Shown: positions 1-59,731 of the stretch, piece by piece
How positions within the stretch are numbered: the stretch's first letter is position 1
Layout of the letters: the number at the start of each line of letters is the position of its first letter
Assembly: GCF_024298765.1 (NCBI RefSeq)
Contig: NZ_CP101210.1
Length of the DNA: 64,000 nucleotides
Reading direction: 5' to 3' (one strand)
Source: Escherichia coli
GTDB lineage: Bacteria > Pseudomonadota > Gammaproteobacteria > Enterobacterales > Enterobacteriaceae
Position numbers and translations under genes: made by a program
The notes under the pieces: model-generated
What the model was told of the DNA's origin: nothing
What the model saw: only the letters and a program-made list of their open reading frames with translations
Database searches by the model: none

Positions 1-1109
1 CCAAACGCCTCTTTCATCCGATCCTCACTGACCACAAAGGCGCGAAGCTGGTCGGCATCATCAACACCGCGCGCCACCATTCCCTGGCGTTCGGTATTAA
101 TTTGCCAGCGTAAATCCTGACGCTGGGTTTCGCCTGCCAGATGCAGCGGTAATTCCGGCGTTTTGATTTTCACCAGCATCGCCGGGAGTTTCAGCGGCGT
201 GTTATTGCCGAGAAGATTTTTTGCCAGCACCATCGCGCTAAGTTGAATCGGCTGGAGGAACGGCAATACCTGACCGTTAATTTCCGCGCAATCGCCCAGC
301 GCATAAATATCGGCATTACTGGTTTGCAGATAACTATCGACGCAAACGCCGCGATTAATCGTCAGCCCGGCGCGTCGTGCCAGGGCGGTTTCCGGGCGCA
401 GTCCGGTGGCGGCAATTACCGCATCCACTTCGATGCTGCGCTGGCGGTCCAGCGTTGCCAGAATGCCAGAATCCGTTTTTTCCAGCCCCTGCAACTGAGA
501 TTTTAACAGCAGATGAACGCCCATCTCCGTCAACCGATGCTGCAAGCGGCTGCTTACTTCCGGTGGCATTAACGCTGCCAGAATACTGGCAGCGTTGTCG
601 ATTAGCGTGACCGCTTTGCCTGCACGACAAAAATCCATCGCCAGTTCGCTACCAATCAAGCCACCGCCAACAATCAACACGCGTCGGGCATTCCGCAGTT
701 GCGTTTCACAGGCGCGATACTCTTGCTGACTATTTAACGTCAGCATTAACTCACGCCCGGGCACTGGCGGGACAAAGGCGCTGGCACCGGTTGCCAGCAC
801 CAGCTTGTCGTATTGCCACTGATTATTCTGACTTTTCACCACATGGGCTTCGGCATCGATATCCGTTACCCAGGTGTGCGGAAACAGGCGCAGATTAAAC
901 TGCTCGGCAAATTCACCTGCCGTCTGGCGGGTAAGGTCGTCGGCACGTTGCCCCTGACTGATAACATGGCTGAGGTCAGGTTTGTTGTACTCATCCATGC
1001 TGTCGGCGGCAATCAGGGTTAATGGAATACTGGCGTCCTGTTTGCGAATATTTTTCACCAGTTGGCGGGCGGCGAAGCCCGAACCAATGATCACAATGCC
1101 GTTGCTCAT
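1..1109 (-). CDS. norW: NADH:flavorubredoxin reductase NorW, 3' end truncated by window start
   Basis: Reverse strand translation from ATG at ~1109 begins [14 protein letters not shown]; start overlaps norV stop (ATGA); synteny with norV/norR. Confidence 0.85.
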
Positions 1110-2545
1110 TTTGCCTCCGATGCCAGTTCGTCAAAGACGTCTTTGCCGAGAGAGCATTCCGGGCACAGGAAGTTATCCGGGACTTCACGCCACGGCGTTC
1201 CTGGCGCAACGTCCTGCATTGGCTCGCCTTTTGCCGGATCGTAAATCCACTGGCAGACGCTGCATTGCATCCGTGGGCCGAGGTCAGCCGTCGTGGCGGC
1301 AGAGGTTTCTTCTTCAACCACCGTATTCACCGTGCTCTGTGGCAGCGGCGCGAGCGCCCACTGACGGGCGATTTCGCGACCGTGTTCACGACATAACTCC
1401 AGAGCGTCCTGGTCCGGTCGCCATTTGGCTTTCAGGCTAAGCGACATTTCGAAACCCGCATCCTGCAGGCGCGTGGAAAGACGATCCACCGCACCGCCGC
1501 TCCAGCCGTGAGAGCCGAAAGCGCTGGCGCGTTTGTTACGGAAGCGTAATCCGGTCATCTCCTCCACCAGCCCGGCGATTTTCGGCATCATCACGTTATT
1601 CATCGTCGAAGTGCCGACCAGCACGCCTTTTGAGCGGAAGACATTGGTCAGGATTTCGTTTTTATCGCTTCGGGCGACGTTGAAAATTTTCACCGCTACG
1701 CGTGGGTCGGTTTCCGCAATACCCTGGGCTATAGCATCGGCCATCATGCGGGTATTATTCGACATGGTGTCGTAGAAAATGGTGATTCTGTCTTCCTGAT
1801 AATCCGCCGCCCATTTCAGGTACAGCTCGACAATTTGCGTCGGGTTATCGCGCCATACCACGCCGTGAGAGGTCGCTATCATATCGACTGGTAAGTTAAA
1901 GCCCAGGATCTCGGTAATTTTCGGCGTTACCAGGCGGCTGAACGGCGTCAGGATATTGGCGTAGTAACGCTGGCACTGCTCGAAAAGCTCCGTCTGATCC
2001 ACTTCATCGTTGAACAGATGCTCGTCGCAGTAGTGCTGACCGAAAGCATCGTTACTGAACAGCACCGCGTCGCCTGTCAGGTAAGTCATCATGCTGTCCG
2101 GCCAGTGCAGCATTGGCGTTTCGACAAAAATGAGTTGTTTGCCGTTGCCGATATCCAGCGTGTCGCCAGTTTTCACTACATTAAAATTCCACTCCGGATG
2201 ATGGTGATGACCATTTATCGAGTCGATAGCGTTGGCAGTACAGTAGATCGGCGTATCGGGAATTTGTGCCATCAGTTCGGTCAGCGCCCCGGCGTGGTCC
2301 TCTTCAGCATGGTTAATTACGATGTAATCGATATCCGCCAGATCGATTTCATTACGCAGGTTCTGCACAAATTCGCGGCTGAATTTATGGTCGACGGTGT
2401 CGATCAGCACGTTTTTTTCTTCGCGGATGAGGTAGCTGTTGTAGCTGCTGCCGCGCAGCGTTTTATATTCTGTACCGTGAAAATCACGCACTTCCCAGTC
2501 ACGTTGACCAACCCAATGAATGTTATTTTTCACCACAATAGACAT
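1106..2545 (-). CDS. norV: Anaerobic nitric oxide reductase flavorubredoxin NorV
   Basis: 479-aa ORF; metallo-beta-lactamase-like, flavodoxin-like and C-terminal rubredoxin CxxC...CxxC; divergent from norR. Confidence 0.93.
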
Positions 2546-2591
2546 AGCAACCTCAATTTATTCAGCGTGTTCTAAAAAGATGTCTTGCTAA

Positions 2592-2608
2592 TTGCAGATT
2601 GCGTGCCA
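2592..2608 (-). promoter_or_regulatory. sigma54 (-24/-12) promoter of norVW
   Basis: Reverse strand reads TGGCACGCAATCTGCAA (TGGCAC-N5-TTGCA class) upstream of norV. Confidence 0.7.
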
Positions 2609-2663
2609 GTTTTTTATCTAATTGTTTTTACTCTATAAATAAAATTGTGCTCATTAATGAGTA

Positions 2664-2719
2664 GTCAAAATGACTATCAATAAAATGGTCGATATGACAA
2701 TATCTATAGTCAAATTGAC
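2664..2719. promoter_or_regulatory. Three NorR enhancer binding sites (GT-N7-AC)
   Basis: gtcaaaatgac (2664-2674), gtcgatatgac (2688-2698), gtcaaattgac (2709-2719) in the norR-norV intergenic region. Confidence 0.75.
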
Positions 2720-2731: not shown

Positions 2732-4246
2732 ATGAGTTTTTCCGTTGATGTGCTGGCGAATATCGCCATCGAATTGCAGCGTGGGATTGGTCATCAGGAT
2801 CGTTTTCAGCGCCTGATCACCACGCTGCGTCAGGTGCTGGAGTGCGATGCGTCTGCGTTGCTACGTTACGACTCGCGGCAGTTTATTCCGCTTGCCATCG
2901 ACGGGCTGGCGAAGGATGTACTCGGTAGACGCTTTGCGCTGGAAGGTCATCCACGGCTGGAAGCGATTGCCCGCGCGGGTGATGTGGTGCGCTTTCCCGC
3001 AGACAGCGAATTGCCCGATCCTTATGACGGTTTGATTCCAGGGCAGGAGAGTCTGAAGGTTCACGCCTGCGTTGGTTTGCCGTTGTTTGCCGGGCAAAAC
3101 CTGATCGGTGCCTTGACGCTCGACGGGATGCAGCCCGATCAGTTCGATGTTTTCAGCGACGAAGAGCTACGGCTGATTGCCGCACTGGCGGCGGGAGCGT
3201 TAAGCAATGCATTGCTGATTGAACAACTGGAAAGCCAGAATATGCTGCCAGGCGATGCCGCGCCGTTTGAAGCGGTGAAACAGACGCAGATGATTGGTTT
3301 GTCCCCTGGCATGACGCAATTGAAAAAAGAGATTGAGATTGTGGCGGCATCCGATCTCAACGTTTTAATTAGCGGTGAGACGGGAACCGGTAAGGAGCTG
3401 GTGGCGAAAGCGATTCATGAAGCCTCGCCACGGGCGGTGAATCCGCTGGTCTATCTCAACTGTGCCGCACTGCCGGAAAGTGTGGCGGAAAGTGAGTTGT
3501 TCGGGCATGTGAAAGGGGCGTTTACTGGTGCTATCAGTAACCGCAGCGGGAAGTTTGAAATGGCGGATAACGGCACGCTGTTTCTCGATGAGATCGGCGA
3601 GTTGTCGTTGGCATTGCAGGCCAAGCTGCTGAGGGTGTTGCAGTATGGCGATATTCAACGCGTTGGCGATGACCGCAGTTTGCGGGTCGATGTGCGCGTG
3701 CTGGCGGCGACTAACCGTGACTTACGCGAAGAGGTACTGGCAGGGCGATTTCGCGCTGACTTGTTCCACCGCCTGAGCGTGTTTCCACTTTCAGTGCCGC
3801 CGCTGCGTGAGCGGGGCGATGATGTCATTCTGCTGGCGGGGTATTTCTGCGAGCAGTGTCGTTTGCGGCTGGGGCTCTCCCGAGTGGTATTAAGTGCCGG
3901 AGCGCGAAATTTACTGCAACACTACAATTTTCCGGGGAACGTTCGTGAACTGGAACATGCTATTCATCGGGCGGTAGTGCTGGCGAGAGCAACCCGCAGC
4001 GGCGATGAAGTGATTCTTGAGGCGCAACATTTTGCTTTTCCTGAGGTGACGTTGCCGCCGCCAGAAGCGGCGGCGGTGCCCGTTGTTAAGCAAAACCTGC
4101 GTGAAGCGACAGAAGCGTTCCAGCGTGAAACCATTCGTCAGGCACTGGCGCAAAATCATCACAACTGGGCCGCCTGTGCGCGGATGCTGGAAACCGACGT
4201 CGCCAACCTGCATCGGCTGGCGAAACGTCTGGGGCTGAAGGATTAA
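2732..4246 (+). CDS. norR: Sigma54-dependent NO-responsive transcriptional activator NorR
   Basis: 504-aa ORF; GAF N-terminus, AAA+ sigma54 activation domain ([14 protein letters not shown]), C-terminal HTH. Confidence 0.93.
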
Positions 4247-9445: not shown

Positions 9446-10531
9446 ATGTTCAAGCGTCGTTATGTAACATTGCTTCCCCTTTTTGTGTTGCTTGCCGCCT
9501 GTAGCAGCAAGCCAAAACCTACTGAGACTGAAACGACCACCGGAACGCCGTCTGGCGGCTTCCTGCTTGAGCCGCAGCACAATGTGATGCAGATGGGCGG
9601 CGATTTCGCTAATAACCCGAATGCCCAGCAGTTCATCGACAAAATGGTGAACAAACACGGTTTCGATCGTCAGCAGTTGCAGGAAATTCTCTCCCAGGCG
9701 AAACGTCTGGATTCGGTACTGCGGCTGATGGATAACCAGGCACCAACGACATCGGTGAAACCGCCATCAGGTCCGAACGGCGCATGGCTGCGTTATCGCA
9801 AAAAATTTATTACGCCGGACAATGTACAGAACGGTGTGGTTTTCTGGAATCAGTATGAAGATGCGTTGAATCGCGCGTGGCAGGTGTATGGCGTACCGCC
9901 GGAAATTATCGTCGGGATTATCGGCGTTGAAACCCGCTGGGGGCGCGTGATGGGGAAAACTCGCATCCTCGATGCGCTGGCAACGCTGTCATTTAACTAC
10001 CCACGCCGCGCGGAGTATTTCTCTGGCGAGCTGGAAACCTTCCTGTTGATGGCGCGCGACGAGCAGGACGATCCGCTCAATCTGAAAGGTTCCTTTGCCG
10101 GGGCGATGGGCTACGGACAGTTTATGCCGTCGTCTTACAAACAATATGCAGTGGATTTCAGCGGCGATGGGCATATCAACCTGTGGGATCCGGTTGATGC
10201 GATCGGTAGCGTGGCGAACTATTTCAAAGCGCACGGCTGGGTGAAAGGCGATCAGGTCGCGGTAATGGCAAACGGTCAGGCTCCAGGCTTGCCAAATGGC
10301 TTCAAAACCAGGTACAGCATTTCGCAGCTTGCCGCGGCAGGTTTAACGCCACAGCAGCCGCTGGGCAACCATCAACAAGCCAGCCTGCTGCGTCTGGATG
10401 TCGGTACCGGTTACCAGTACTGGTACGGTCTGCCGAACTTCTACACCATTACCCGTTATAACCACAGCACCCATTACGCAATGGCGGTCTGGCAGTTAGG
10501 ACAAGCCGTGGCGCTGGCGCGCGTGCAGTAA
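9446..10531 (+). CDS. mltB: Membrane-bound lytic murein transglycosylase B
   Basis: ORF 9341-10531; start placed at MFKRRYVTLLPLFVLLAAC (lipobox) to give 361 aa. Confidence 0.88.
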   Translation: MFKRRYVTLLPLFVLLAACSSKPKPTETETTTGTPSGGFLLEPQHNVMQMGGDFANNPNAQQFIDKMVNKHGFDRQQLQEILSQAKRLDSVLRLMDNQAPTTSVKPPSGPNGAWLRYRKKFITPDNVQNGVVFWNQYEDALNRAWQVYGVPPEIIVGIIGVETRWGRVMGKTRILDALATLSFNYPRRAEYFSGELETFLLMARDEQDDPLNLKGSFAGAMGYGQFMPSSYKQYAVDFSGDGHINLWDPVDAIGSVANYFKAHGWVKGDQVAVMANGQAPGLPNGFKTRYSISQLAAAGLTPQQPLGNHQQASLLRLDVGTGYQYWYGLPNFYTITRYNHSTHYAMAVWQLGQAVALARVQ

Positions 10532-15874: not shown

Positions 15875-16060
15875 ATGCTGATTCTGACTCGTCGAGTTGG
15901 TGAGACCCTCATGATTGGGGATGAGGTCACCGTGACAGTTTTAGGGGTAAAGGGCAACCAGGTACGTATTGGCGTAAATGCCCCGAAGGAAGTTTCTGTT
16001 CACCGTGAAGAGATCTACCAGCGTATCCAGGCTGAAAAATCCCAGCAGTCCAGTTACTAA
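15875..16060 (+). CDS. csrA: Carbon storage regulator CsrA
   Basis: 61-aa [51 protein letters not shown]... Confidence 0.98.
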
Positions 16061-16375: not shown

Positions 16376-16468
16376 GGTGAGGTGGCCGAGAGGCTGAAGG
16401 CGCTCCCCTGCTAAGGGAGTATGCGGTCAAAAGCTGCATCCGGGGTTCGAATCCCCGCCTCACCGCCA
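16376..16468 (+). tRNA. serV: tRNA-Ser (anticodon GCU)
   Basis: 93-nt sequence GGTGAGGTGGCCGAGAGG...CCGCCTCACCGCCA with long variable arm; anticodon loop CT-GCT-AA. Confidence 0.92.
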
Positions 16469-16471
16469 TTT

Positions 16472-16548
16472 GCATCCGTAGCTCAGCTGGATAGAGTACT
16501 CGGCTACGAACCGAGCGGTCGGAGGTTCGAATCCTCCCGGATGCACCA
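16472..16548 (+). tRNA. argV: tRNA-Arg (anticodon ACG), copy 1
   Basis: 77-nt GCATCCGTAGCTCAGCTGGATAGAGTACTCGGCTACGAACCGAGCGGTCGGAGGTTCGAATCCTCCCGGATGCACCA. Confidence 0.93.
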
Positions 16549-16746
16549 TATTCTACGTACCTTCAGCGATGAAGGTATGGAAGAGGTGGCGGTAATAACC
16601 GCAGGCACCAGGGAGGATAACGTTGCTTTAGCAACGGCCCGAAGGGCGAGCCGCAAGGCGAGTAATCCTCCCGGATGCACCATCTCTTACTTGATAGGGC
16701 TTTAGTAGCGGTATCAAAAAATCTGCAGTAAAGTAAGTTTCCCGAT
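16549..16746 (+). repeat. tRNA-cluster spacer repeat ending in a duplicated tRNA-Arg 3' end
   Basis: Hairpins cttcagcgatgaag and gttgctttagcaac, then cctcccggatgcacca without a preceding tRNA body; near-identical copy at 17103-17236. Confidence 0.7.
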
Positions 16747-16823
16747 GCATCCGTAGCTCAGCTGGATAGAGTACTCGGCTACGAACCGAGCGGTCGGAGG
16801 TTCGAATCCTCCCGGATGCACCA
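16747..16823 (+). tRNA. argY: tRNA-Arg (anticodon ACG), copy 2
   Basis: Identical 77-nt tRNA-Arg sequence. Confidence 0.92.
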
Positions 16824-16885
16824 TCTCTTACTTGATATGGCTTTAGTAGCGGTATCAATATCAGCAGTAAAATAAATTTTCCGAT

Positions 16886-16962
16886 GCATCCGTAGCTCAG
16901 CTGGATAGAGTACTCGGCTACGAACCGAGCGGTCGGAGGTTCGAATCCTCCCGGATGCACCA
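16886..16962 (+). tRNA. argZ: tRNA-Arg (anticodon ACG), copy 3
   Basis: Identical 77-nt tRNA-Arg sequence. Confidence 0.92.
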
Positions 16963-17025
16963 TCTCTTACTTGATATGGCCTTAGTAGCGATATCAATAT
17001 CAGCAGTAAAATAAATTTTCCCGAT

Positions 17026-17102
17026 GCATCCGTAGCTCAGCTGGATAGAGTACTCGGCTACGAACCGAGCGGTCGGAGGTTCGAATCCTCCCGGATGCAC
17101 CA
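17026..17102 (+). tRNA. argQ: tRNA-Arg (anticodon ACG), copy 4
   Basis: Identical 77-nt tRNA-Arg sequence. Confidence 0.92.
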
Positions 17103-20154: not shown

Positions 20155-20670
20155 ATGCCGTTGTTAGATAGCTTCACAGTCGATCATACCCGGATGGAAG
20201 CGCCTGCAGTTCGGGTGGCGAAAACAATGAACACCCCGCATGGCGACGCAATCACCGTGTTCGATCTGCGCTTCTGCGTGCCGAACAAAGAAGTGATGCC
20301 AGAAAGAGGGATCCATACCCTGGAGCACCTGTTTGCTGGTTTTATGCGTAACCATCTTAACGGTAATGGTGTAGAGATTATCGATATCTCGCCAATGGGC
20401 TGCCGCACCGGTTTTTATATGAGTCTGATTGGTACGCCAGATGAGCAGCGTGTCGCTGATGCCTGGAAAGCGGCAATGGAAGACGTGCTGAAAGTGCAGG
20501 ATCAGAATCAGATCCCGGAACTGAACGTCTACCAGTGTGGCACTTACCAGATGCACTCGTTGCAGGAAGCGCAGGATATTGCGCGTAACATTCTGGAACG
20601 TGACGTGCGCATCAACAGCAACGAAGAACTGGCGCTGCCGAAAGAGAAGTTGCAGGAACTGCACATTTAG
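20155..20670 (+). CDS. luxS: S-ribosylhomocysteine lyase LuxS
   Basis: 171-aa [17 protein letters not shown]...; HxxEH metal motif. Confidence 0.96.
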
Positions 20671-20696
20671 TCAGTAAACTATCTTCACAATTAATT

Positions 20697-20730
20697 GAAA
20701 AAAGCCAGTTCAAATGAACTGGCTTAGTTG
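20697..20730 (-). terminator. Rho-independent terminator of emrRAB (possibly bidirectional with luxS)
   Basis: Hairpin gccagttcaaatgaactggc flanked by an A-tract (T-tract on the reverse strand). Confidence 0.6.
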
Positions 20731-20733
20731 TAC

Positions 20734-22272
20734 TTAGTGCGCACCACCTCCGCCGCCACCTGCGCCAAATGGCGGTTTAGCAAACCACACCAGCCCCAGC
20801 AAGACGAGGAATATCCCGGCTGACATCCAGAAGATCTCATTAGCGGAAATAATCAGCCCCTGATTGGTTATCTGCTGGGCAATCCAGCCTGATGCCTGCT
20901 GTTGCGTCATACCAAGCCCTTCCAGTTGACTGTACATCGCCTGAGCATTCGGGTTGAACGGATTTACCGACTCAGTCAACTGCGCATGGTGCATCGACTC
21001 GCGGTTGGTCCACATGGTGGTGGTGATGGATGTGCCGATAGACCCCGCCAGCGTTCGCGTAAAGTTAGAGAGGCTCGATGCCGCCGCCAGTCGTTCCGGT
21101 GGCAAACCAGACAGCGTAATGGTGGTCAGCGGCATAAAGAAGCAGGCCACCGCAAACCCCTGGATAAACTGCGGCCAGGCCGACGCGCCAAAATCCATAC
21201 CTGGTTCAAAGGTATAGGCACGCCAGTAGAAGCAGACGGCATACATAATAAAGCTGAAGGTTACCAGCCGCCGCATATCCAGTTTATGCGCGAAGCGGCC
21301 GATAATCGGCGACAGGATCACCGGAATAATTCCTACCGGCGCAGAGGCCAGACCTGCCCACGTTGCCGTGTAACCGTAGACCTCCTGCAACAACTGCGGC
21401 AGCAGAACAATAGCGCCGAAGTAGAGCATATACGCGAGGCTGATACACAAACAGCCGATGGTGAAGTTGCGCGACTTAAACAACGACAGATCGACTATCG
21501 GGTTATCGTCGGTCAGCTCCCAGACAATCAGGAAGCAGATAGCCACCACTGCCACCACGGTAAGGATGATAATTTCCTGTGATGAGAACCAGTCCAGCTC
21601 TTTACCGCGGTCGAGCATAATCTGCAGGCTACCGATACCAATAACCAGCAGTGCCAGCCCCACGGCATCAATCCGCCGCCGTTCGGTGCGGGTTTCGCGT
21701 CCGCGCAGGGTTTGCAGTGTCATCAACACCACCGCCACGCCAATCGGTACGTTGATGAAGAATATCCAGCCCCAGTGGTAATTATCGCTGATATACCCGC
21801 CGAGGATCGGGCCGCAAATTGGCGCGACAATCACCGTCATCGACCACAACGCCAGCGCGATCGAGCGTTTGGCTGGCGGGTAGTTATTCAGCAATAGACT
21901 TTGCGAAAGCGGAATTAACGGCCCGGCGACAATCCCCTGAATCACGCGGAAGAAGATCAGCATATTCAGGCTGCTGGAGACACCACACGCCCACGACGCA
22001 ATAGCAAAGGCGATGGTGGACCAGAGGAACAGTTTCACTTCCCCGACGCGCTTTGCCAGCCAGCCGGTAAGCGGGATCGAGATGGCATTCGCCACCCCGA
22101 AAGAAGTGATTACCCACGTTCCCTGGCTGAGCGATGAGCCCAGATTCCCGGCGATAGTGGGGATCGCCACGTTAGCAATGGTGGAGTCCAGCACCTGCAT
22201 GAATGTCGCCAGTGACAGCGCAATCGTCATAATGACCAGTTGCGCGCCTTCCAGCGGTTTTTGCTGTTGCAT
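20734..22272 (-). CDS. emrB: Multidrug efflux MFS transporter EmrB
   Basis: ORF 515 aa; 512 aa from MQQQKPLEG; 14-TMS-like hydrophobicity; C-terminal polyglycine. Confidence 0.93.
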   Translation of the reverse strand: MQQQKPLEGAQLVIMTIALSLATFMQVLDSTIANVAIPTIAGNLGSSLSQGTWVITSFGVANAISIPLTGWLAKRVGEVKLFLWSTIAFAIASWACGVSSSLNMLIFFRVIQGIVAGPLIPLSQSLLLNNYPPAKRSIALALWSMTVIVAPICGPILGGYISDNYHWGWIFFINVPIGVAVVLMTLQTLRGRETRTERRRIDAVGLALLVIGIGSLQIMLDRGKELDWFSSQEIIILTVVAVVAICFLIVWELTDDNPIVDLSLFKSRNFTIGCLCISLAYMLYFGAIVLLPQLLQEVYGYTATWAGLASAPVGIIPVILSPIIGRFAHKLDMRRLVTFSFIMYAVCFYWRAYTFEPGMDFGASAWPQFIQGFAVACFFMPLTTITLSGLPPERLAAASSLSNFTRTLAGSIGTSITTTMWTNRESMHHAQLTESVNPFNPNAQAMYSQLEGLGMTQQQASGWIAQQITNQGLIISANEIFWMSAGIFLVLLGLVWFAKPPFGAGGGGGGAH

Positions 22273-46624: not shown

Positions 46625-47050
46625 ATAGTTATGTAATTCATTGAATTTAAATAGCCAAATATTGTTGATTTTACAAGCGGCTCTTTTGCGGAACTTTTTC
46701 TGTCCTGTTACTGTCTTACTATTTATTTTAAAATAGTTTCATTTGGAATTAATGGTTTGTGGTTGCAGTTTCGGAGATAGATAGCATTTTTTGCTAAAAA
46801 ATATTTTTATAAAAAATGTGTGTAAAAATGATGTTATGCACAGATTTATGCACAGAGGCTTTGTGATAAACCAGATTGTTTTGGATAAGTTTGTTTTTTT
46901 GTGATTTGTCAACAATATTATTGACTCTTGTTACTAAAGTGAGTGTTTTCTAAGGTGGTCAGAAGTTGTCCCTTCATGTAATCTTATTAGCCATAAAGAA
47001 CAAAAAATAATTCAACATCATTACCAACTATTTGTAAGATAAGGTTTTTA

Positions 47051-47866
47051 ATGTTGCAGCCAGCAAAAAAAGCATCAGTTATTAGCGCGCGGCTAACGAA
47101 ATACCTCAAAGATGGAGTGAGGATTGATGACTTTAGCTTTAGAAGGATGTTACGTGAGATTGAAGCACTTAGAGATCCTGTCTCTGAGGACTATCTTTTA
47201 GCGTTGGTCTATGGTGCACATGGCCAAGTGAATGAGGCGATAGGCTTCTTTGAGCGTTCCTTGCAGGTATGCCATAATGAGGTTGTTGCAAAGAATTTTC
47301 TTGTTTTCTTGTCAGATTACGGTACGTTGAAGAAAAGCTTTGAAACAAGCATTAAGCTTGCTGAAAGCTTCATATCCCCGTTTATTTATCTTCAAGCTTA
47401 TGAAAACTCCCTCTTTATGGGGAAGATGGCGTTGGCGGAGAAGTATTTCCAGTCATACTCTAAATTGTTCGGAGATAAGGAGCCTGAAAAAATGGACAAC
47501 AATCTTGATGAAGTTGTTTCCCAGGTCGAATCCTTTAAGCAACGTGCCGATCTTTCTGGTTTAGAATATGAACTTATTTTCAATAATGTAGCCAATGTCA
47601 TGGATTCTCAGAAGGTTCATCTTTCGGGAATGCGTTTTTATAATATTTCGGAAGAGAAAGTGAATGCGATTGTATTCATGACAAAGTCTTCTGATGCTGA
47701 ACAAATCGCTGATATGAATATTGAGCTTGCTTTTTCAATGGCTGAGCACGATTGTTTAGTCGGTAAAGATTTTGCTGTTTGGTTTGAATGTAAAGACACA
47801 CATATTGAGCAGAATGCTATCTCCGAATTAGGTCTGATTACCCGGAGGGTTGCACATGCCGGTTAA
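47051..47866 (+). CDS. Hypothetical protein, gene 1 of a two-gene cargo operon between att core and int
   Basis: 271-aa ORF, about 40 percent GC by eye, no TM, no recognizable catalytic motif; stop overlaps the start of the next ORF. Confidence 0.6.
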   Translation: MLQPAKKASVISARLTKYLKDGVRIDDFSFRRMLREIEALRDPVSEDYLLALVYGAHGQVNEAIGFFERSLQVCHNEVVAKNFLVFLSDYGTLKKSFETSIKLAESFISPFIYLQAYENSLFMGKMALAEKYFQSYSKLFGDKEPEKMDNNLDEVVSQVESFKQRADLSGLEYELIFNNVANVMDSQKVHLSGMRFYNISEEKVNAIVFMTKSSDAEQIADMNIELAFSMAEHDCLVGKDFAVWFECKDTHIEQNAISELGLITRRVAHAG

Positions 47867-48239
47867 TAGTCAAGATTTTCTCGGTTTTGCAAAAGACTGT
47901 CATCAACGTAATGACGAAATCGGCTATCGAAATGCTATAGCAAGATCCTACTATGGCGCTTACCATCATGTCTTGCCTTGTATGGTAAACGGGCCGAAAG
48001 ACAGTCATCAGGGGCTAATCAATTATTTGCAGGGCGATGCTTCAAGAGGAAGTGAAGTATATGAAGCTAGATATCTAAAAGGGATTAGTTTTATCCTGAG
48101 TCAACTTAAAGCTCAGAGGATTGTTGCAGACTATCGACTTGATCAATCGGTCACTTCTAAACAGTCTGAAGTTGCGATTCTAACAACTGAGAGGCTCTTT
48201 GCTAAGTGTACGGAAATGCTTAAATCGAGAGCCTCCTAA
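47856..48239 (+). CDS. Hypothetical protein, gene 2 of the cargo operon (unverified HEPN-like R-x6-H motif)
   Basis: ATG at 47856 preceded by SD ggaggg; about 127 aa; motif RSYYGAYHH; terminator hairpin aaagccacttaagtggcttttttt immediately after. Confidence 0.55.
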   Translation: MPVNSQDFLGFAKDCHQRNDEIGYRNAIARSYYGAYHHVLPCMVNGPKDSHQGLINYLQGDASRGSEVYEARYLKGISFILSQLKAQRIVADYRLDQSVTSKQSEVAILTTERLFAKCTEMLKSRAS

Positions 48240-48252
48240 TTGATAAAGCCAC

Positions 48253-49425
48253 TTAAGTGGCTTTTTTTGTGATATTGCTGGTCGTATTACCGTCATATTC
48301 CTTTAAATATAAACCATAATGACGAAATAACATTTCCGGCCCTTTATGCCCCATTTGAGCTGCAAGCCAAAACAGGTTTGCTCCCCGGCTGATATGGCGG
48401 GTGGCGAATGTATGCCTAGTTTGATATGGATTTCTGTAACGAATACCTGCTTTTCGCAATGTTGGCACCCATGCTTTTTTCCTGATTGCATCAGCACTTG
48501 CCCAAGGCTTATTGGTCTTTGGATCTTCAAAGACAGTAGTATCCTTCATGAATGTAAATGGCTTCTGATTTATCAGCGCCAACATTGCCTCTTCTGTCAG
48601 TTCAACTTTCCGAGTACCTGCTTTTGTCTTTGTCCCTTTGATAACACCGACAACACTTGCGCTCTGGACATGGGCAGTTTTTCCAACAAAGTCGATATCA
48701 CGCCATCGAAGGGCACATAATTCAGAACTACGCAGGCCTGTATGTATAGCGAACCGGAACAGATTTTCCCATTGTTTGTTTCCGGCTGCTGCTAGTAATG
48801 CATCAACTTCTGCTGGTGATAGCGGATCAACTACGTAGCTGCTTTCTGCTTCTGACTTATCACTTTGGTAGCGCGAAGCTGTTACTAACGATACGGGGTT
48901 AATTTGAAGTACCCCATCGGTCACGGCTTCATCAAGTGCTGACCGCAGGAAAGATAACTGGTTGCGAATTGTTTTTAAGGTCGTTTTCTGATTTTGAATC
49001 CACGCTTTCAGGGTTGCTGGTGTTAATTCACTTGCAGGGCAAATGTGAAGTGAGGCTAACGCACTACGGCATTTTTTATAGCCACCAATCGTAGAGGGTG
49101 AAAGTTTTCTTGTTTCGCAGATTTCAAGATATTCGTCCAGGTACATCTTTACCGTTTTGCCTGCAGCAGCATTACCAAAAATTTTCAAACGAGCAGAACG
49201 GGGAAAATATTCTGCATAAATGAATGTTCCCCTTTCGATCTTATTATGGATTTCGCCGAGTGTACGCTCGGCGTATTTAATGTTCTTTGGTGTTACTTCC
49301 AGATTGGAAAGCGGCTCACGACATCTAACTCCTTTGTAGGTGAAAGTTATATTGATCGTTTCTCCCTGGCGGTGTTTCCTGATTGTTACGCCGCGCGGTA
49401 GTTTGAGCAGTTTTGTCTGGCCCAT
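48253..49425 (-). CDS. int: Phage integrase (tyrosine recombinase)
   Basis: 390-aa ORF with N-terminal arm-binding-like domain and C-terminal catalytic region (RHTFATRH ... LFRHYGLY). Confidence 0.9.
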   Translation of the reverse strand: MGQTKLLKLPRGVTIRKHRQGETINITFTYKGVRCREPLSNLEVTPKNIKYAERTLGEIHNKIERGTFIYAEYFPRSARLKIFGNAAAGKTVKMYLDEYLEICETRKLSPSTIGGYKKCRSALASLHICPASELTPATLKAWIQNQKTTLKTIRNQLSFLRSALDEAVTDGVLQINPVSLVTASRYQSDKSEAESSYVVDPLSPAEVDALLAAAGNKQWENLFRFAIHTGLRSSELCALRWRDIDFVGKTAHVQSASVVGVIKGTKTKAGTRKVELTEEAMLALINQKPFTFMKDTTVFEDPKTNKPWASADAIRKKAWVPTLRKAGIRYRNPYQTRHTFATRHISRGANLFWLAAQMGHKGPEMLFRHYGLYLKEYDGNTTSNITKKAT

Positions 49426-49592
49426 TTTGCAACCTCACTAAGATCAATCCACCTCTCCTTAACGCCTTCAACCTTTAAAACCTGAACACCTTCACGCCAA
49501 ACACCGCGCTGTACACGTTTGTTTATTGCTTCAGGAGTTTCGCCAGTTTCTTTGCAATAAGTTGAGATAGGAACACAATCGAGGTTCAGCAT
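49386..49592 (-). CDS. Excisionase-like small DNA-binding protein
   Basis: Small ORF overlapping the int start; start placed at MLNLD with SD GGAG; position typical for xis. Confidence 0.5.
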   Translation of the reverse strand: MLNLDCVPISTYCKETGETPEAINKRVQRGVWREGVQVLKVEGVKERWIDLSEVAKWARQNCSNYRAA

Positions 49593-49633
49593 ACGTTTCT
49601 CCATTATCCCGTCTGCACACGGGAGCAACATTA

Positions 49634-50524
49634 TTAACGAATAGTGTCGTTACTTTGAAGTACAGCAAATGCCATTAATACTTCTAAAGTATATCTTCTA
49701 TAAAATTTAACAAAACCAACATAGAAAACATAGACGAAGAAAAAGCTAAGCATTATTGAAAGTAAACTATAAAGATAATCACTATGAGTACATAATCGAT
49801 AAATAAAGGTTGGAACTGATACCCAAAATGAAATTATAAAGATTAAACATATGTTTCTGCAAAAACCATATAATGCAACATAGTTTTGAATTTTTGTTTG
49901 ATGTTGTTTTGAAAACTCATAAACATAATGATATGCCAATCTGAAGAGATCATCATCAAGTCCGTTTTTATCTTGTAATAATTGGCGATTTGTTATGAAC
50001 TTTTTCTCATAACCTTCTTTGATCATTAACCATGTTGTATTAGCTAAATGAAATGGTAGAGATTGAGAATAACATAGTTTTTGTGTTATAAAATCCCATA
50101 GTATTATTGGGCATAATACGCATTTGATTATGCGATTCTTTATTTTTGTTTTTTTATCAGCGCTTCTCTCATCGCATGATGGGCTACAAATGCTTTCTGA
50201 GGTATCTATCAATTTTTTAAATAGATATTTGGAAGGATATCCTAATTCTTTATTCATGTATTTTTCGATAAAAAATGCTGACGTGATAGAAATAAAATGT
50301 CCAGCTATATAAGATATAATAACTATTGAAGCGTAGTTCAAAATGCCAAAGATTTGACTTTGACCTCTGAGCAATTCACTTAAGTCAATAACAATATCTA
50401 GATCGAATGTCAAACCACAGAAATACATTAATAGGATAAAAAAACCACCTGGTATTAAATATCCAAGAAAGTCATAGAATGAGAATGGATTTTGATTCAT
50501 TGTTGCTCTCCAATAATTTTTCAA
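49634..50524 (-). CDS. Hypothetical polytopic membrane protein (very AT-rich cargo gene)
   Basis: 296-aa ORF with hydrophobic segments at both ends; roughly 30 percent GC by eye; sits between xis and the YfdR-like gene. Confidence 0.6.
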   Translation of the reverse strand: MKNYWRATMNQNPFSFYDFLGYLIPGGFFILLMYFCGLTFDLDIVIDLSELLRGQSQIFGILNYASIVIISYIAGHFISITSAFFIEKYMNKELGYPSKYLFKKLIDTSESICSPSCDERSADKKTKIKNRIIKCVLCPIILWDFITQKLCYSQSLPFHLANTTWLMIKEGYEKKFITNRQLLQDKNGLDDDLFRLAYHYVYEFSKQHQTKIQNYVALYGFCRNICLIFIISFWVSVPTFIYRLCTHSDYLYSLLSIMLSFFFVYVFYVGFVKFYRRYTLEVLMAFAVLQSNDTIR

Positions 50525-50608
50525 TTTGTAATATAACCTATATCTATATGTTAATAAATTACTTATATGTTCTTTTATGGCAGAGTTTGAATTCGTACGT
50601 GCTGATTT

Positions 50609-51145
50609 TTACGACTCAGTTAACTCTTTAAAGCGTTCCATAAACATCCCATAGGTATGGCCTGGCGACAGTGGAATAACTTTGAACATCTCTGTTGCCG
50701 GGATACCTTCCAGTACGGGCCAGAAAGAGCCATCATCAAGCCCGAGATCGCGGCGTTCGGTTGCCAGCATGATGAGATCGGCATATTTCACGGGCGTACT
50801 CATAACCGGGGGTAACCCGTATTTCTCACGGATTACGGCGTCTATTTTTTCTTCCATCCGTTTATAGTCAGGAAGAAGGCGTTTCAGTGGAGCCGGGATG
50901 TCCTGGCAATACGCTTCTGTTGCATCATGCATTAACGCTTCAAAAGCAAATTCCTGCGGTACCAGCTGGCTGCAAAGCACCGCATGTTGGGCGACGCTGT
51001 AGAAGTGTGAAAGATGGCCGGCAAAGCGACAGATATTTGAAAGGGAAACCGCGATATCGTTAATATCGATGTTGTCTTTATTTATCCTGTCATAATAAAA
51101 ATGTTTCCCGGAAAAAGTTTTAATAAATGACATTTTGTTCTCCAC
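50609..51145 (-). CDS. HD-domain phosphohydrolase (YfdR-like 5'-deoxynucleotidase family)
   Basis: 178-aa ORF with H...HD motif (AQHAVL ... LMHDATEAY); same size as CPS-53 YfdR. Confidence 0.7.
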   Translation of the reverse strand: MENKMSFIKTFSGKHFYYDRINKDNIDINDIAVSLSNICRFAGHLSHFYSVAQHAVLCSQLVPQEFAFEALMHDATEAYCQDIPAPLKRLLPDYKRMEEKIDAVIREKYGLPPVMSTPVKYADLIMLATERRDLGLDDGSFWPVLEGIPATEMFKVIPLSPGHTYGMFMERFKELTES

Positions 51146-51261
51146 GTTATATGCGCTGCACCGCGCTGAATTTTGGTTAAAGAAAACCCTCGCCTTCAGG
51201 CGATTATTGAGTCAATTACGTTTCCATAAATGCCCCCGCAGGGGCATTTGCAGTAATGAAA

Positions 51262-52086
51262 TCAGGCGGTGAAAGTCCCAATAAAGGTTTCTACTTTGCT
51301 GTCCTTGAATTTCTCAACAAGCAGATCACGAAATTCGTTAGCCATATCTTCCTGCACCGCTTCCAGCTGAATAATGCGCAGAACCAGTACAGGACGATCG
51401 CCAGTGATAATGCTGAGGCGTAATTTAAACGGACGTTCTTTCAGACCTTCAAACGGAACGCATTTAAACTCAAATGCCACTGGCATAATGTCTTTGGTCT
51501 TCGCTTCGACAGACTCCATCAGGGAGCGTTTGCCGCTGAAGTCATTATCTTCAAAATCAGCAGTCTGGTTTGCTTCAATCGTGATTTTACGGACCGCCGC
51601 AGCCGCTTTTGTTGCCTGAATGGTGTCACCATTAGCATCAAAGCCCACAAGATAGTCGGCCCAGTCTTCGATCCATTCTGCCAGTGATTTCTGGGAGTTA
51701 CGCTCTCCATTAACAGACAACAGAGCAGAGAACGGTGCTGTCTTTTTCAGTTTGAGAGTGGCGGTGTTATCTGCGTGACCTGGTTCATCAATAGTACCCA
51801 GGTTAAGCACACTGACGGCACGCATATTATCAGCATCGATAAAGCAGCGGGTGCCTTCATCTGCAAGATCTTTAGAATAACGGGTAAAGTCATCAATGCT
51901 GGCAGTGGAAAGCGCACCACGGAAACGGAAGCGATTTAAATTAAATTTTTCCAGATCATGAATGCGGAAATTCTCAGGCAATGCCACAGCATCGGCACCA
52001 ATCTTACTGATAATTTCATTAACACCCTGAGCAGAAATAAGAGCATGGATTTGATTAATTGCGGTTGCGTCTAAGTTCTGAGACAT
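51262..52086 (-). CDS. Phage protein, YfdQ-like (DUF2303 family)
   Basis: 274-aa ORF adjacent to the YfdR-like gene; size and neighbourhood match CPS-53 YfdQ (from memory). Confidence 0.6.
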
Positions 52087-52151
52087 AATAAGTCCTCACT
52101 ATATAAAGATATTCAGTGATGAGATAAATAATCAGTTAATTAAGAACGATA

Positions 52152-52514
52152 TTAATGACCTGCTGCGCGGAGTTTTCCGTCAGGCTCACCGGCAAGAGTC
52201 AGTAATTGTCCCTGGTCTTCCTGCAGAATAGTCAGGCGACCACCGCGATTGACATACATCGGCGTTTCGGTGGTGTCTTCTTCGGAAATTTTCCCACGGT
52301 TAGTCGGGCGAACATATGAGAGTTTGTGTTTGATTTTCACACGGTTCTCATCAAATGGTTCGATTTCCAGGTTGAGTGAGACCTTACCTTTGGTTTTCGT
52401 GTTCATCACACCGGAAGCGACTTCACTGAGAACTGCGCCGATTTTGGTTTCAAATACGCCGCCGTCCAGCTCCCCGATAAATGCCTGCACATCAGTACTG
52501 CGTTCGCTAGCCAT
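52152..52514 (-). CDS. Phage hypothetical protein, possibly YfdP-like
   Basis: Start placed at MASERSTDVQ (ATG ~52514) with SD AGGAG; about 120 aa; the longer ORF-track extension runs through an 18-bp inverted repeat. Confidence 0.55.
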   Translation of the reverse strand: MASERSTDVQAFIGELDGGVFETKIGAVLSEVASGVMNTKTKGKVSLNLEIEPFDENRVKIKHKLSYVRPTNRGKISEEDTTETPMYVNRGGRLTILQEDQGQLLTLAGEPDGKLRAAGH

Positions 52515-52857
52515 TTTGCTGCTCCTCATCATATCGACCCTGCAAGGCCGATTAGTTTCTCCACAAAACAGAGAAGAACACCTGCGGTGGCAGCCGCCCG
52601 GATGGATTGGGTTATGAGCCCGTCGTCCGATGATGTTCTTCTCTGTTTTGTAAAAAGAGCGGTACCAGCCGGAAGCAAGTGTACAAACTGGTACCGCCAA
52701 AGCAGTGGCTGTTGTGGTGACCGGTGCTGATCTCCGGCTTGCGGTTATTTCAGACTCTCACGGGCGTTTAATTGCCCCGCCGAACAGCTCTTTTCCGCAA
52801 TAGCTGCAATGTCTTTCGCGCATCAGCCTGCGCATTCACCACAACTCTAAAAACAAA

Positions 52858-52908
52858 TGTAGGATATCCAACGTGTGGGTGTCAAGAGTTTATGTTGGTT
52901 ATCCTACA
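52858..52908. promoter_or_regulatory. OL-like operator pair (repressor binding palindromes)
   Basis: tgtaggatatccaac (52858-52872) and tgttggttatcctaca (52893-52908); same half-site family as the OR sites. Confidence 0.6.
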
Positions 52909-52925
52909 TAAAAAGATAGGCTCAT

Positions 52926-52951
52926 AAAAAAACCGGGGATACCCCGGTTTT
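52926..52951 (-). terminator. Rho-independent terminator downstream of the cI-like gene (bidirectional-capable)
   Basis: ccgggg-ata-ccccgg hairpin flanked by A7 and T4. Confidence 0.65.
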
Positions 52952-52971
52952 GCGATAGTGAGGAAGATGTG

Positions 52972-53625
52972 TCAAAAATCCATTATTACTTGTTTGACAA
53001 GACCAACTATTCTGCAGTTCTCACCGCATTCAATAGTTTTATAGTTAGGATTTAGTGGGACGAGATACCTGTTCGGCCAGTCCTCAACAAATTTTTTGAG
53101 TGTCGCTTCTTGCCCACCATTGATATGGGCAACAACGATTTTTCCGTTAATACACTCTGTATCAATAATATCTGGCTCTACGATAACGATAGAACCTTCT
53201 GGTATCGATGGTGAGCCGAGGGGATTGGTCATTGAATCACCACGGACCCGTAGTGCAAATGCCATTTCTGATACAAGGGCGGTAGTATAAACCCACTCTT
53301 CAGCATCTTCTTTCCTGACACCAGGCTCCGTCATTGTCCATGAACCCGCCTGAACCCACGAGATGAGGGGGACTTTTTTAACTGCGAATATTTCAGGTTT
53401 TAGATTTATCTTTGGTTCAGGCGAGCCTTTTCCGCTAACAAGCCACAGAGGATCGCATTTAAGTGCGTTGGCTAGGGCTTGAAGGTTGGCTCCATTTGGT
53501 TGGTAGTCGTCCTTTTCCCATCCAGTAACCGTGACACGGTTCACACCAGTCAAATCAGCCAGTGCTTGTTGTGTCAGGTTCAGTTCTTTTCGCCTTTGGC
53601 GAATACGATCACTCATGTTCATCAT
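52972..53625 (-). CDS. CI-like prophage repressor (HTH + S24 LexA-type peptidase domain)
   Basis: 217-aa ORF; N-terminal HTH (LNLTQQALADLTGVNRVTVTGWE), C-terminal GDSM serine motif; divergent from the cro-like gene. Confidence 0.88.
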   Translation of the reverse strand: MMNMSDRIRQRRKELNLTQQALADLTGVNRVTVTGWEKDDYQPNGANLQALANALKCDPLWLVSGKGSPEPKINLKPEIFAVKKVPLISWVQAGSWTMTEPGVRKEDAEEWVYTTALVSEMAFALRVRGDSMTNPLGSPSIPEGSIVIVEPDIIDTECINGKIVVAHINGGQEATLKKFVEDWPNRYLVPLNPNYKTIECGENCRIVGLVKQVIMDF

Positions 53626-53689
53626 GTAGGCAATCCTACCACATGCTCATGTAGGATTCTTGACATTGATATGTTGGATATCCTACATT
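53625..53689. promoter_or_regulatory. OR-like operators and PR/PRM region
   Basis: Palindromes tgtaggcaatcctacc (53625-53640), tgtaggattcttgaca (53650-53665), tgttggatatcctaca (53672-53687); TTGACA -35 at 53660-53665; first operator abuts the cI start codon. Confidence 0.6.
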
Positions 53690-53720
53690 TCTGCTTAACG
53701 TAATTTAACGGGAGACAGAA

Positions 53721-53918
53721 ATGCGGAAATCCGACGTGATTAATTATTTCGGCGGAGTTTGTAAAACCGCCGAAGCCCTAGGTATTAAGCATCCGTCTGT
53801 TTCAGAGTGGCCTGAGATTATTCCTGAAGGCCGAGCGTACCAGTTAGAAAAAATTACTAACGGGAAACTGAAAGTTGACGTGTCTTTATATCAAAAGACT
53901 AACAGTGCTGCGGCATAA
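53721..53918 (+). CDS. Cro-like small DNA-binding protein
   Basis: 65-aa ORF divergent from the repressor with operators between them. Confidence 0.7.
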   Translation: MRKSDVINYFGGVCKTAEALGIKHPSVSEWPEIIPEGRAYQLEKITNGKLKVDVSLYQKTNSAAA

Positions 53919-53945
53919 AAACACCACAGAAATGAGGAATTAACC

Positions 53946-54530
53946 GTGGGTAAAGAACCTGAATGGAAAGTTGATAAACAACCAGCATGGCTGGTGGCAG
54001 CAATACGAAGAACGATTGCTGATTTACCTCATGGCTATGAGGAAGCAGCAGAAATTCTTGGTTTGTATAAATCTGATGATATCACCCCAGCAAAAGATCA
54101 ATTGCATAACAGACTGCGTAGCGGTGGGGATCAAATTTTTCCACTTGAGTGGGCCATGGTTTTACAGGATGCCAGTGGTACCAGGCATGTAACAGATGCA
54201 ATAGCCCGTCGTAGTAATGGGGTGTTTGTGCCGCTGGTGGTCATTGATGACATTGACAATGGTGACATTAATCAGCGGCTGATGGAGTCAATAGAATGGA
54301 TTGGCAAGCATTCCCAGTACTTACGCAAGGCAACTGCTGATGGAGTTATTGACCAAGCTGAGCGTGAGCAAATCGAAGAGAACAGCTACCAAGTAATGGC
54401 GAAGTGGCAGGAGCATTTAACACTGTTATTTCGTGTTTTTTGTGCGCCGGAAAAGAGTAACGCCCGCGAGTGTGCAGCTCCGGGCGTCGTGGCGTCGATT
54501 GCTTCTGGTTGTGGAGAAACTAACGCATGA
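53946..54530 (+). CDS. Phage regulatory protein, CII-like (tentative)
   Basis: 194-aa ORF directly after cro in the cII position; family assignment from position and vague similarity only. Confidence 0.45.
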
Positions 54531-54865
54531 ACAGTTTAACAACACACTACCGTCGTTCGCAACTGATTGCGCTTCCTGTACCGGGTGGAAAAGCGAAGGT
54601 GGAGTATTGCTATGCAGTGAATGTACCAGGTGATAGGGAAATTGTAACCCACAGCTTTGCAGAGTGGGCTGTGGGTGATTTCAACCGGCAGAAGGAGACA
54701 GTCCTTTGCGACAAGTTAACCGCTGGTTCAAAGATCACTACGGAGTGCCCGTCAGAGTCATTCGTTGGGAGCCGGAAACACAACGGGTTATCTACCTCCG
54801 TGAAGGCTATGAACATGAATGCTTCAGTCCGCTCGAACAGTTTCGTCGTAAATTCAGGGAAATAG
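54527..54865 (+). CDS. Hypothetical phage protein (C-terminal part doubtful)
   Basis: 112-aa ORF starting at the ATGA overlap with the upstream stop; the last ~50 aa are low-complexity and overlap ORF 54706-54918 out of frame. Confidence 0.35.
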
Positions 54866-54918
54866 AGGTCGGTCATGAGCCTGTTAATGACATCCCAGCC
54901 CATTGTGATAAATCGTGA
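54706..54918 (+). CDS. Hypothetical phage protein (TTG start)
   Basis: 70-aa ORF with strong SD gaaggaga about 7 nt upstream of TTG; protein-like composition; overlaps the O-like gene start. Confidence 0.45.
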
Positions 54919-55867
54919 TCTTGCATGCCGTATTGGTCTGAATGAGGCAATTGTGTTGCAGCAGCTTCATTACTGGCTGAATGAAACGAATTCAGGCACT
55001 GAGCATGGCGGAATTCGCTGGGTTTATAACACGACAGAACAGTGGCTGGAGCAGTTTCCGTTCTGGTCAGAGTCCACTCTGAAACGCACATTTGCAAGCC
55101 TGAAATCACTTGGGGTTTTGCGTCGCGAGCAACTCAATAAATCGAAGCGTGACATGACCAACTTCTACACGATCAACTATGAAAGTGAGCTTTTAGAAGA
55201 GGTCAAAGTGAACGAATCCATCAGGTCAAAATGCACTTCTCCATCGGGTCAAAGTGACCTGATGGATGAGCGCAAAATGACACGATCCATTGGTTCAAAA
55301 CGACACGCTGTCATCGGGTCAAAATGGCCCAATGATCTTACAGAGAATACAACAGAGATTACTACAGAGAATAAAACCTCTTCTCGTCCGGACGCTTCGC
55401 AACCGGACACGCAGATGGCTGAACAGGATTTTTTAACTCGCCATCCTGATGCGGTTGTATTCAGCCCTAAAAAGCGCCAGTGGGGAACGCAGGATGATTT
55501 GACCTGCGCACAGTGGCTCTGGAAAAAAATCATCGCTCTGTACGAGCAGGCCGCCGAATGTGACGGCGAAGTGGTACGTCCTAAAGAACCGAACTGGACA
55601 GCCTGGGCAAACGAAATTCGCCTGATGTGTGTACAGGATGGGCGTACTCACAAACAAATCTGCGAGATGTACAGCCGCGTCAGCCGCGATCCGTTCTGGT
55701 GCCGTAACGTGCTCAGCCCGTCGAAGCTGCGGGAAAAATGGGATGAGCTTTCCCTGCGCTTATCGCCGTCCGTCAGCACGTACACAGAAAAACGCGAAGA
55801 TCCGTACTTCAAAGCCAGTTACGACAACGTGGACTACAGCCAGATCCCGGCAGGATTCAGGGGGTGA
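54875..55867 (+). CDS. Replication initiation protein, lambda O-like, with internal iterons
   Basis: 330-aa ORF; N-terminal O-like domain; four to five direct DNA repeats of the ggtcaaaatg type at ~55196-55330. Confidence 0.8.
   Translation: MSLLMTSQPIVINRDLACRIGLNEAIVLQQLHYWLNETNSGTEHGGIRWVYNTTEQWLEQFPFWSESTLKRTFASLKSLGVLRREQLNKSKRDMTNFYTINYESELLEEVKVNESIRSKCTSPSGQSDLMDERKMTRSIGSKRHAVIGSKWPNDLTENTTEITTENKTSSRPDASQPDTQMAEQDFLTRHPDAVVFSPKKRQWGTQDDLTCAQWLWKKIIALYEQAAECDGEVVRPKEPNWTAWANEIRLMCVQDGRTHKQICEMYSRVSRDPFWCRNVLSPSKLREKWDELSLRLSPSVSTYTEKREDPYFKASYDNVDYSQIPAGFRG
55196..55330. repeat. Origin iterons inside the O-like gene
   Basis: Direct repeats gaggtcaaagtg, caggtcaaaatg, cgggtcaaagtg, tggttcaaaacg, cgggtcaaaatg spaced ~20-25 bp. 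Confidence 0.7.
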
Positions 55868-55869
55868 TC

Positions 55870-55962
55870 ATGAGTCTTTTGAATGAAGTTCAGAAATTCA
55901 TTGAAGCCCATCCGGGGTGTACTTCCGGAGACATTGCGGATGCTTTTTACGTGGGGGCTTAA
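55870..55962 (+). CDS. Small ORF (30 aa) translationally coupled between the O-like gene and the methyltransferase
   Basis: ATG at 55870 preceded by SD aggggg; stop overlaps the methyltransferase ATG (TAATG). Confidence 0.3.
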   Translation: MSLLNEVQKFIEAHPGCTSGDIADAFYVGA

Positions 55963-56615
55963 TGAGTAATAAATATTGTCAGGCGCTGGTGGAGCTGCGG
56001 AACAAACCATCCCATGAACTGAAGGAGGTGGGCGATCAGTGGCGCACGCCGGACAGCATTTTCTGGGGAATTAACACCTTGTTTGGCCCGTTTGTTCTGG
56101 ATCTGTTCACTGACGGTGATAACGCCAAATGTGCCGCGTATTACACGGCGGAAGACAACGCGCTGGCGCATGACTGGTCAGAACGCCTTGCGGAGCTTAA
56201 AGGTGCTGCCTTTGGCAATCCCCCATACAGTCGCGCCAGTCAGCATGAGGGGCAATACATCACCGGCATGCGTTACATCATGAAACATGCCAGTGCCATG
56301 CGTGATAAGGGCGGGCGCTATGTTTTCCTGATCAAAGCTGCCACCAGCGAAGTGTGGTGGCCGGAAGATGCGGACCATATTGCTTTTATTCGCGGGCGTA
56401 TTGGTTTTGAACTGCCTGCCTGGTTTATCCCGAAAGATGAGAAGCAGGTGCCGATAGGCGCTTTCTTCGCTGGTGCTATTGCTGTTTTTGACAAGACCTG
56501 GAAGGGACCGGCAATCAGCTACATCGGGCGCGATGAACTTGAGGCATGTGGTGAGGCCTTTCTGGCGCAGGTTCGCCAGCAGGCAGAAAAACTGGTCAGG
56601 GAGATGGTGGCATGA
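55962..56615 (+). CDS. Phage DNA N6-adenine methyltransferase (Dam-like)
   Basis: About 218 aa from MSNKYCQALVEL; motif IV FGNPPYS. Confidence 0.85.
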   Translation: MSNKYCQALVELRNKPSHELKEVGDQWRTPDSIFWGINTLFGPFVLDLFTDGDNAKCAAYYTAEDNALAHDWSERLAELKGAAFGNPPYSRASQHEGQYITGMRYIMKHASAMRDKGGRYVFLIKAATSEVWWPEDADHIAFIRGRIGFELPAWFIPKDEKQVPIGAFFAGAIAVFDKTWKGPAISYIGRDELEACGEAFLAQVRQQAEKLVREMVA

Positions 56616-57001: not shown

Positions 57002-57020
57002 TTAAGAGGAGAAACGAAGT

Positions 57021-57818: not shown

Positions 57819-57819
57819 G

Positions 57820-58815: not shown

Positions 58816-58828
58816 GTGGAGAACGAGC

Positions 58829-59713: not shown

Positions 59714-59731
59714 CTTTTCTGGAGGTCAATA

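Follow-up and report, generated by a model that had tools for sequence, protein, structure and literature searches.

Organization of the norR-norV locus

The stretch of DNA analyzed here, referred to as the window, is 64,000 nucleotides long. Its first genes are norW, norV, and norR, with norV and norR transcribed divergently from a common spacer. The 3' part of norW, which encodes NADH:flavorubredoxin reductase, occupies positions 1 to 1109 on the minus strand according to the RefSeq annotation of strain 104, and the gene extends beyond the window start. The intact norV gene (1106 to 2545, minus strand) encodes flavorubredoxin NO reductase, a protein of 479 amino acids. It was identified from its ORF, from the RefSeq annotation, and from its Pfam domains, which are ODP/Lactamase_B (metallo-beta-lactamase-like), Flavodoxin_1, and Rubredoxin. 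The norW start overlaps the norV stop, and the downstream operon expected for the promoter described below, an intact norV followed by norW, is present.

On the other side of the spacer, norR (2732 to 4246, plus strand) is also intact and encodes an NO-sensing sigma-54 enhancer-binding protein of 504 amino acids, as indicated by its ORF, Pfam domains, and RefSeq annotation. Pfam assigned GAF, Sigma54_activat (AAA+), and AAA_lid_14 domains to the product; a C-terminal HTH_8 domain was not listed at E ≤ 0.001, despite the annotation of the protein as NorR. A GAGG motif at 2723 to 2726 on the plus strand probably serves as the norR Shine-Dalgarno sequence, and the CCTCAC block on the opposite strand was conserved in at least 95% of the sequences compared.

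The norV-norR spacer spans 2546 to 2731 (186 bp, 69% A+T). No Rfam match indicative of a hidden RNA was obtained between 2300 and 3000, even at a permissive threshold. Small ORFs of 21 to 46 amino acids overlap the spacer; these are merely mechanical, and no peptide gene is proposed. A search for sigma-70 promoter sequences that could serve norR returned a single weak match, on the minus strand, which scored no better than matches in shuffled sequences, and no norR promoter was assigned.

The window is E. coli chromosome. A 501-bp stretch around the spacer elements was 100% identical to many RefSeq complete genomes. The same stretch, annotated as norR/norV, was matched at ≥95% identity in 5,425 of 5,426 complete E. 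coli genomes. Strain 104 was collinear with the window up to position 46624, with seven mismatches. ATCC 11775 was considered as a reference and rejected; it is identical over the 501 bp and differs from the window elsewhere, and strain 104 matches better.

Several other features of the window were recorded in passing. Position 46624 corresponds in strain 104 to a point roughly 32 bp inside the 3' end of ssrA; beyond it, an island or prophage continues through positions 46625 to 64000. It carries an integrase ORF (48253 to 49425, minus strand) and lambdoid-type genes that are partly common to ATCC 11775. No intact tmRNA gene was found in the window, and the segment looks like a prophage integrated at ssrA. 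In ATCC 11775, a two-gene insertion (locus L082, 20589 to 22405) encoding an ATP-binding protein and an RNA ligase family protein separates luxS from emrB. The window does not have this insertion at the corresponding junction (20670 to 20734), which is the site of a small variable island. Downstream of csrA, positions 16376 to 17102 hold genes for tRNA-Ser(GCT) and four tRNA-Arg(ACG), and the gap after the first tRNA-Arg gene is about 135 bp longer in the window than in ATCC 11775. ARAGORN also called an antisense tRNA-Arg(TCG) at 16492 to 16563, overlapping this cluster, and this call is likely spurious.

Three NorR sites in the spacer

A first-pass annotation made from the sequence alone had read three GT-N7-AC sites in the norR-norV spacer and had noted the span from 2592 to 2719, which starts one base beyond the -12 element of the promoter and ends with the last base of NorR site 3. 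Exactly three such repeats were found in 2546 to 2731, where it had placed them, and all three have the extended form GTC-N5-GAC. Site 1, GTCAAAATGAC, is the promoter-proximal repeat (2664 to 2674; -82 to -92 relative to the norV start described below). It is identical to the wild-type form of the Site1 mutagenic primers used in K-12 and is contained in the 21-bp NorR1 oligonucleotide. Site 2, GTCGATATGAC, lies at 2688 to 2698 (-106 to -116), and site 3, GTCAAATTGAC, the repeat nearest norR, lies at 2709 to 2719 (-127 to -137). These two match the wild-type forms of the Site2 and Site3 mutagenic primers, respectively. The norR ATG lies 12 bp beyond the end of site 3.

We asked how informative these repeats are as patterns. 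The window contains 201 copies of the bare GT-N7-AC core. Clusters of three within 56 bp were also found near 10404 to 10410 and at 13224, inside genes (mltB and alaS), and were obtained in 118 of 200 first-order Markov simulations. The four-base core is statistically uninformative alone and, given the number of window copies and the frequency of triplets in simulations, would be an unreliable signal elsewhere. Triplets of GTC-N5-GAC within 56 bp, on the other hand, occurred in none of the 200 simulations. The diagnostic pattern is the GTC-N5-GAC form together with the 21- and 24-bp spacing and the fixed distance to the TGGCAC element.

A fourth palindrome, GTCA-N3-TGAC, lies inside norV at 2498 to 2508. 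It was examined as an extra NorR site and rejected, as it is a codon string for GQRDW and appears or disappears by synonymous changes in roughly a third of related loci. This copy, synonymously variable between species, is probably a coincidence. In the window as a whole, GTCA-N3-TGAC occurs six times, against 0.84 expected, and a count of six was reached in none of 100 shuffles. The four copies outside the enhancer are all in coding sequence, at 2498 to 2508 (norV), 15926 to 15936 (csrA), 22226 to 22236 (emrB), and 55248 to 55258 (a prophage ORF).

The sigma-54 promoter norVp and the DNA between promoter and enhancer

The first-pass annotation had also reported a readable -24/-12 element in the spacer, and this element was found in the place given. 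It is TGGCAC-GCAAT-CTGCA at 2608 to 2593 on the minus strand, which is the norV sense strand, and it has canonical spacing and faces norV; the strand is a detail that we add to the earlier description. The full 17-mer of the sigma-54 promoter norVp, CTGGCACGCAATCTGCA, reads from 2609 to 2593, with GG at 2607/2606 as -25/-24 and GC at 2595/2594 as -13/-12. The description of the promoter as canonical was accurate except at the -12 element, where CTGCA differs by one mismatch from TTGCW. When the window was scanned for TGGCAC-N5-TTGCW with up to one mismatch, norVp was the sole match. Chance alone would supply 3.4 such matches per window, and the consensus match is not significant on its own.

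Transcription of norV probably starts at 2582 on the minus strand, a position suggested by the placement of the -12 element, by the numbering of published footprints, and by the promoter-to-gene distance from ChIP-seq. This start would lie 12 nt downstream of the -12 C and give norV a 5' leader of 37 nt (2546 to 2582, minus strand). With +1 at 2582, position -137 corresponds to the G at 2719, the outer edge of site 3, and -84 corresponds to the G at 2666, in the inner half of site 1.

Between the promoter and the enhancer lies an AT-rich loop (2610 to 2663). In K-12, IHF has been reported to bind between the transcription start and the NorR sites, and the loop corresponds to this region. A scan of 2610 to 2663 for WATCARNNNNTTR gave best matches with two mismatches. 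The best IHF-like core, AAACAATTAGATA, reads from 2627 to 2615 on the minus strand with two mismatches, and a single-nucleotide difference from K-12 falls inside it.

Identity to experimentally mapped K-12 elements

Comparison with published norV promoter maps, the check that the first-pass annotation had proposed, showed that the window sites are the same elements that were mutated, footprinted, and detected by ChIP-seq, with no mismatch in any site. Tucker et al. 2010 (PMC2831303) used mutagenic primers that change GT..AC to GG..CC at NorR sites 1, 2, and 3. The window repeats are the exact sequences mutated in that study and are also found within its 21-bp and 66-bp binding oligonucleotides; the 66-bp NorR123 oligonucleotide is identical to window DNA except for one inter-site SNP. 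In the same work, methylation protection revealed G residues that were protected or enhanced, with -137 and -84, counted from the norV start, as the outer limits. Every one of the three sites was essential in K-12, in vivo and in vitro; with any single site mutated, norV-lacZ was no longer induced and open complexes no longer formed (Tucker et al. 2010, PMC2831303).

In the ChIP-seq data of Bonocora et al. 2015 (PMC4591121), the sigma-54 peak for norV is assigned the motif CTGGCACGCAATCTGCA and is listed as an EcoCyc-confirmed promoter at a distance of 37, the same length as the 37-nt leader that we computed. Genomic SELEX with NorR in K-12 identified the norR-norV spacer as the single strong target, and the spacer was also a target in RpoN gSELEX.

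Alignment of the spacer with that of K-12 MG1655 revealed four SNPs, which spare all three NorR sites and the -24/-12 element. The DNA separating site 1 from site 2 holds one, the DNA immediately promoter-side of site 1 holds two, and the IHF-like block adjacent to the -24 element holds the fourth, so that three of the four fall within the loop.

Conservation across Enterobacterales and E. coli

Conservation of the control region was analyzed by a protein-seeded scan that included one genome per species and recovered 80 norR loci from Enterobacterales, with Escherichia, Klebsiella, Xenorhabdus, and Leminorella among the genera represented. The upstream DNA was long enough for comparison in 78 of them; counts out of 79 refer to these 78 loci plus the window. 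In 76 of the 78 loci, three GTC-N5-GAC sites were present with unchanged 21/24-bp spacing and unchanged distances to the norR ATG. The -24 hexamer was TGGCAC in 75 of 79 sequences and TGGCAT in the other four, and its distance to site 1 was 64 to 67 bp in all but one of the 79. Per-column conservation peaked at the three NorR sites, at TGGCACGCAA (the -24 element), and at the TG of the -12 element. Further peaks coincided with the IHF-like block abutting the -24 element, with CATC at the probable transcription start, and with the norR ribosome-binding site.

The -12 element fell into two main classes. CTGCA was found in 32 of 79 sequences, namely, the window and 31 loci from Escherichia, Citrobacter, Salmonella, Kluyvera, and relatives. 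In 40 of 79, mostly from Enterobacter, Klebsiella, and Kosakonia and also from Raoultella, Lelliottia, and others, the element was TTGAT, in which GA replaces the near-invariant GC. The -24 TGGCAC was kept in both classes. Genera also differed in the loop: in most of those outside Escherichia, a perfect IHF core, AATCAATAAATTA, occupies the aligned position immediately upstream of the -24 element, whereas in Escherichia (the window and K-12) this core is degenerate, with two mismatches. Other Enterobacterales, such as Salmonella, Citrobacter, Klebsiella, and Enterobacter, share with the window the three GTC-N5-GAC sites, their offsets from the norR ATG, and the -24 TGGCAC, and differ from it in the frequent TTGAT -12 element and the usually perfect IHF core. 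This comparative picture of enterobacterial norR-norVW control regions had already been published in outline (Rodionov et al. 2005).

One exception was noted within E. coli. Isolate AF3 (NZ_OZ547117.1; locus L086, 2461 to 2601), from a blood culture, was the only one of the 5,426 complete genomes with an apparent, precise 45-bp spacer deletion (24 + 21 bp). The apparent deletion aligns to window positions 2675 to 2719, merges sites 1 and 3 into one GTCAAAATGAC, and leaves the enhancer two sites short. Since each NorR site is essential in K-12, AF3 should fail to induce norVW if this putative deletion is real.

Discussion

The first-pass annotation had interpreted the spacer as the NorR enhancer and sigma-54 promoter of norVW with the known architecture. 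Identity to the K-12 sites, conservation across Enterobacterales, and intact flanking genes bear this out, and no observation spoke against it. Judged from its sequence, the spacer is almost certainly the native E. coli norR-norVW divergent control region, predicted to work by the same mechanism as in K-12. The position, orientation, and conservation of the elements and their identity to mapped sites are far beyond chance. This enhancer-promoter pair is already known, and the allele found here is a common natural one.

For the mechanism we rely on published work on K-12, whose sequence is the same at every site and whose norVW transcription is known to depend on NO, NorR, and RpoN. Three NorR dimers would bind the three GTC-N5-GAC inverted repeats, with centers near -87, -111, and -132. 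Binding to DNA would promote assembly of a hexameric AAA+ ring of NorR, poised at the promoter and stabilized by flanking DNA. Sigma-54 RNA polymerase would occupy the minus-strand -24/-12 element as a closed complex, and bending of the AT-rich, IHF-bound DNA would bring the NorR ring and the polymerase into contact. Binding of NO to the ferrous iron of the NorR GAF domain would then relieve repression of the ATPase, and ATP hydrolysis would drive open-complex formation, with norVW transcribed leftwards from about 2582.

Sequence differences outside the sites could modify the output of this system. A slight quantitative difference from K-12 is possible because the four SNPs lie in inter-site or loop DNA, three of them where IHF has been reported. 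More broadly, the lineage-specific loop/IHF SNPs, or the Escherichia-type combination of CTGCA with a degenerate IHF core as opposed to the TTGAT with a perfect core seen in most other enterics, might tune the basal leakiness of norVW or the amplitude of its response to NO. We consider such tuning unlikely; if it did occur, it would represent natural variation in a textbook enhancer-promoter pair and not a new mechanism. The narrower proposal, that the window allele behaves measurably differently from K-12 owing to its four spacer SNPs, is very unlikely. The SNPs are outside the sites, yet they lie inside DNA that must bend or wrap, and flanking DNA is reported to help stabilize the NorR oligomer. 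Against this, the exact 140-bp allele is common to many strains (491 complete genomes at ≥99% identity), few columns of the cross-species alignment are less conserved than those with the SNPs, and the K-12 version of the Escherichia IHF-like core is itself degenerate.

The three sites might instead function mainly as operators through which NorR represses norR, with norVW activation as a secondary effect. The geometry allows for such a role: 12 bp separate site 3 from the norR ATG, so that a NorR complex would also overlie the DNA upstream of norR, and the sites take up the sole DNA available for a norR promoter. In the genomic SELEX literature, NorR is also described as a regulator of both norR and norVW. 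As the primary function, this is very improbable. Mutation of any one site leaves norV-lacZ uninduced and no open complex formed, the enhancer-to--24 distance of 64 to 67 bp, fixed in all but one sequence, is a constraint of the kind that activation imposes, and the sigma-70 scan yielded no norR promoter. Autoregulation of norR is best seen as an additional role of the NorR sites rather than an alternative to norVW activation.

A chance origin of the motifs in AT-rich intergenic DNA, without any regulatory role, has a negligible probability: the abundance of the GT-N7-AC core, the frequency of its simulated triplets, and the expected number of near-consensus sigma-54 matches are compatible with it, but the GTC-N5-GAC triplet never arose in simulations, position and spacing are fixed in nearly all of the Enterobacterales loci compared, sigma-54 occupancy was seen by ChIP-seq (PMC4591121), and published mutagenesis of essential K-12 sites identical to those of the window already refutes it.

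With the native norVW control region as the accepted assignment, the locus serves as the intended positive control for the reading of regulatory sites. It also provides a calibration point, as a tool-free reading located the promoter and three enhancer sites within one base of the mapped elements.

Comparison with known systems

The closest counterpart is the K-12 promoter norVp with NorR sites 1 to 3 (Tucker et al. 2004, 2010; Justino et al. 2005). The two are identical in the three 11-bp sites with their 24- and 21-bp spacing, the 17-bp sigma-54 element, the enhancer-promoter distance, the 37-nt leader, and the divergent norR, and they differ by the four SNPs in the non-site spacer DNA of the window. 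A more distant relative is the NorR/norAB system of Ralstonia eutropha, for which the comparison is drawn from the literature. It has a regulator of the same family, and its sigma-54 promoter is preceded by three tandem GT-N7-AC-type sites, none of which is dispensable. In contrast to norVW, its target is a haem b3-iron NO reductase, and its NorR has ~40% identity to E. coli NorR. NtrC and glnAp2 likewise combine a sigma-54 promoter, upstream sites, an AAA+ enhancer-binding protein, and DNA looping. For NtrC, however, two sites suffice and control is exerted via oligomerization after phosphorylation, whereas for NorR three sites are a strict requirement and regulation acts on a complex that has already formed on the DNA.
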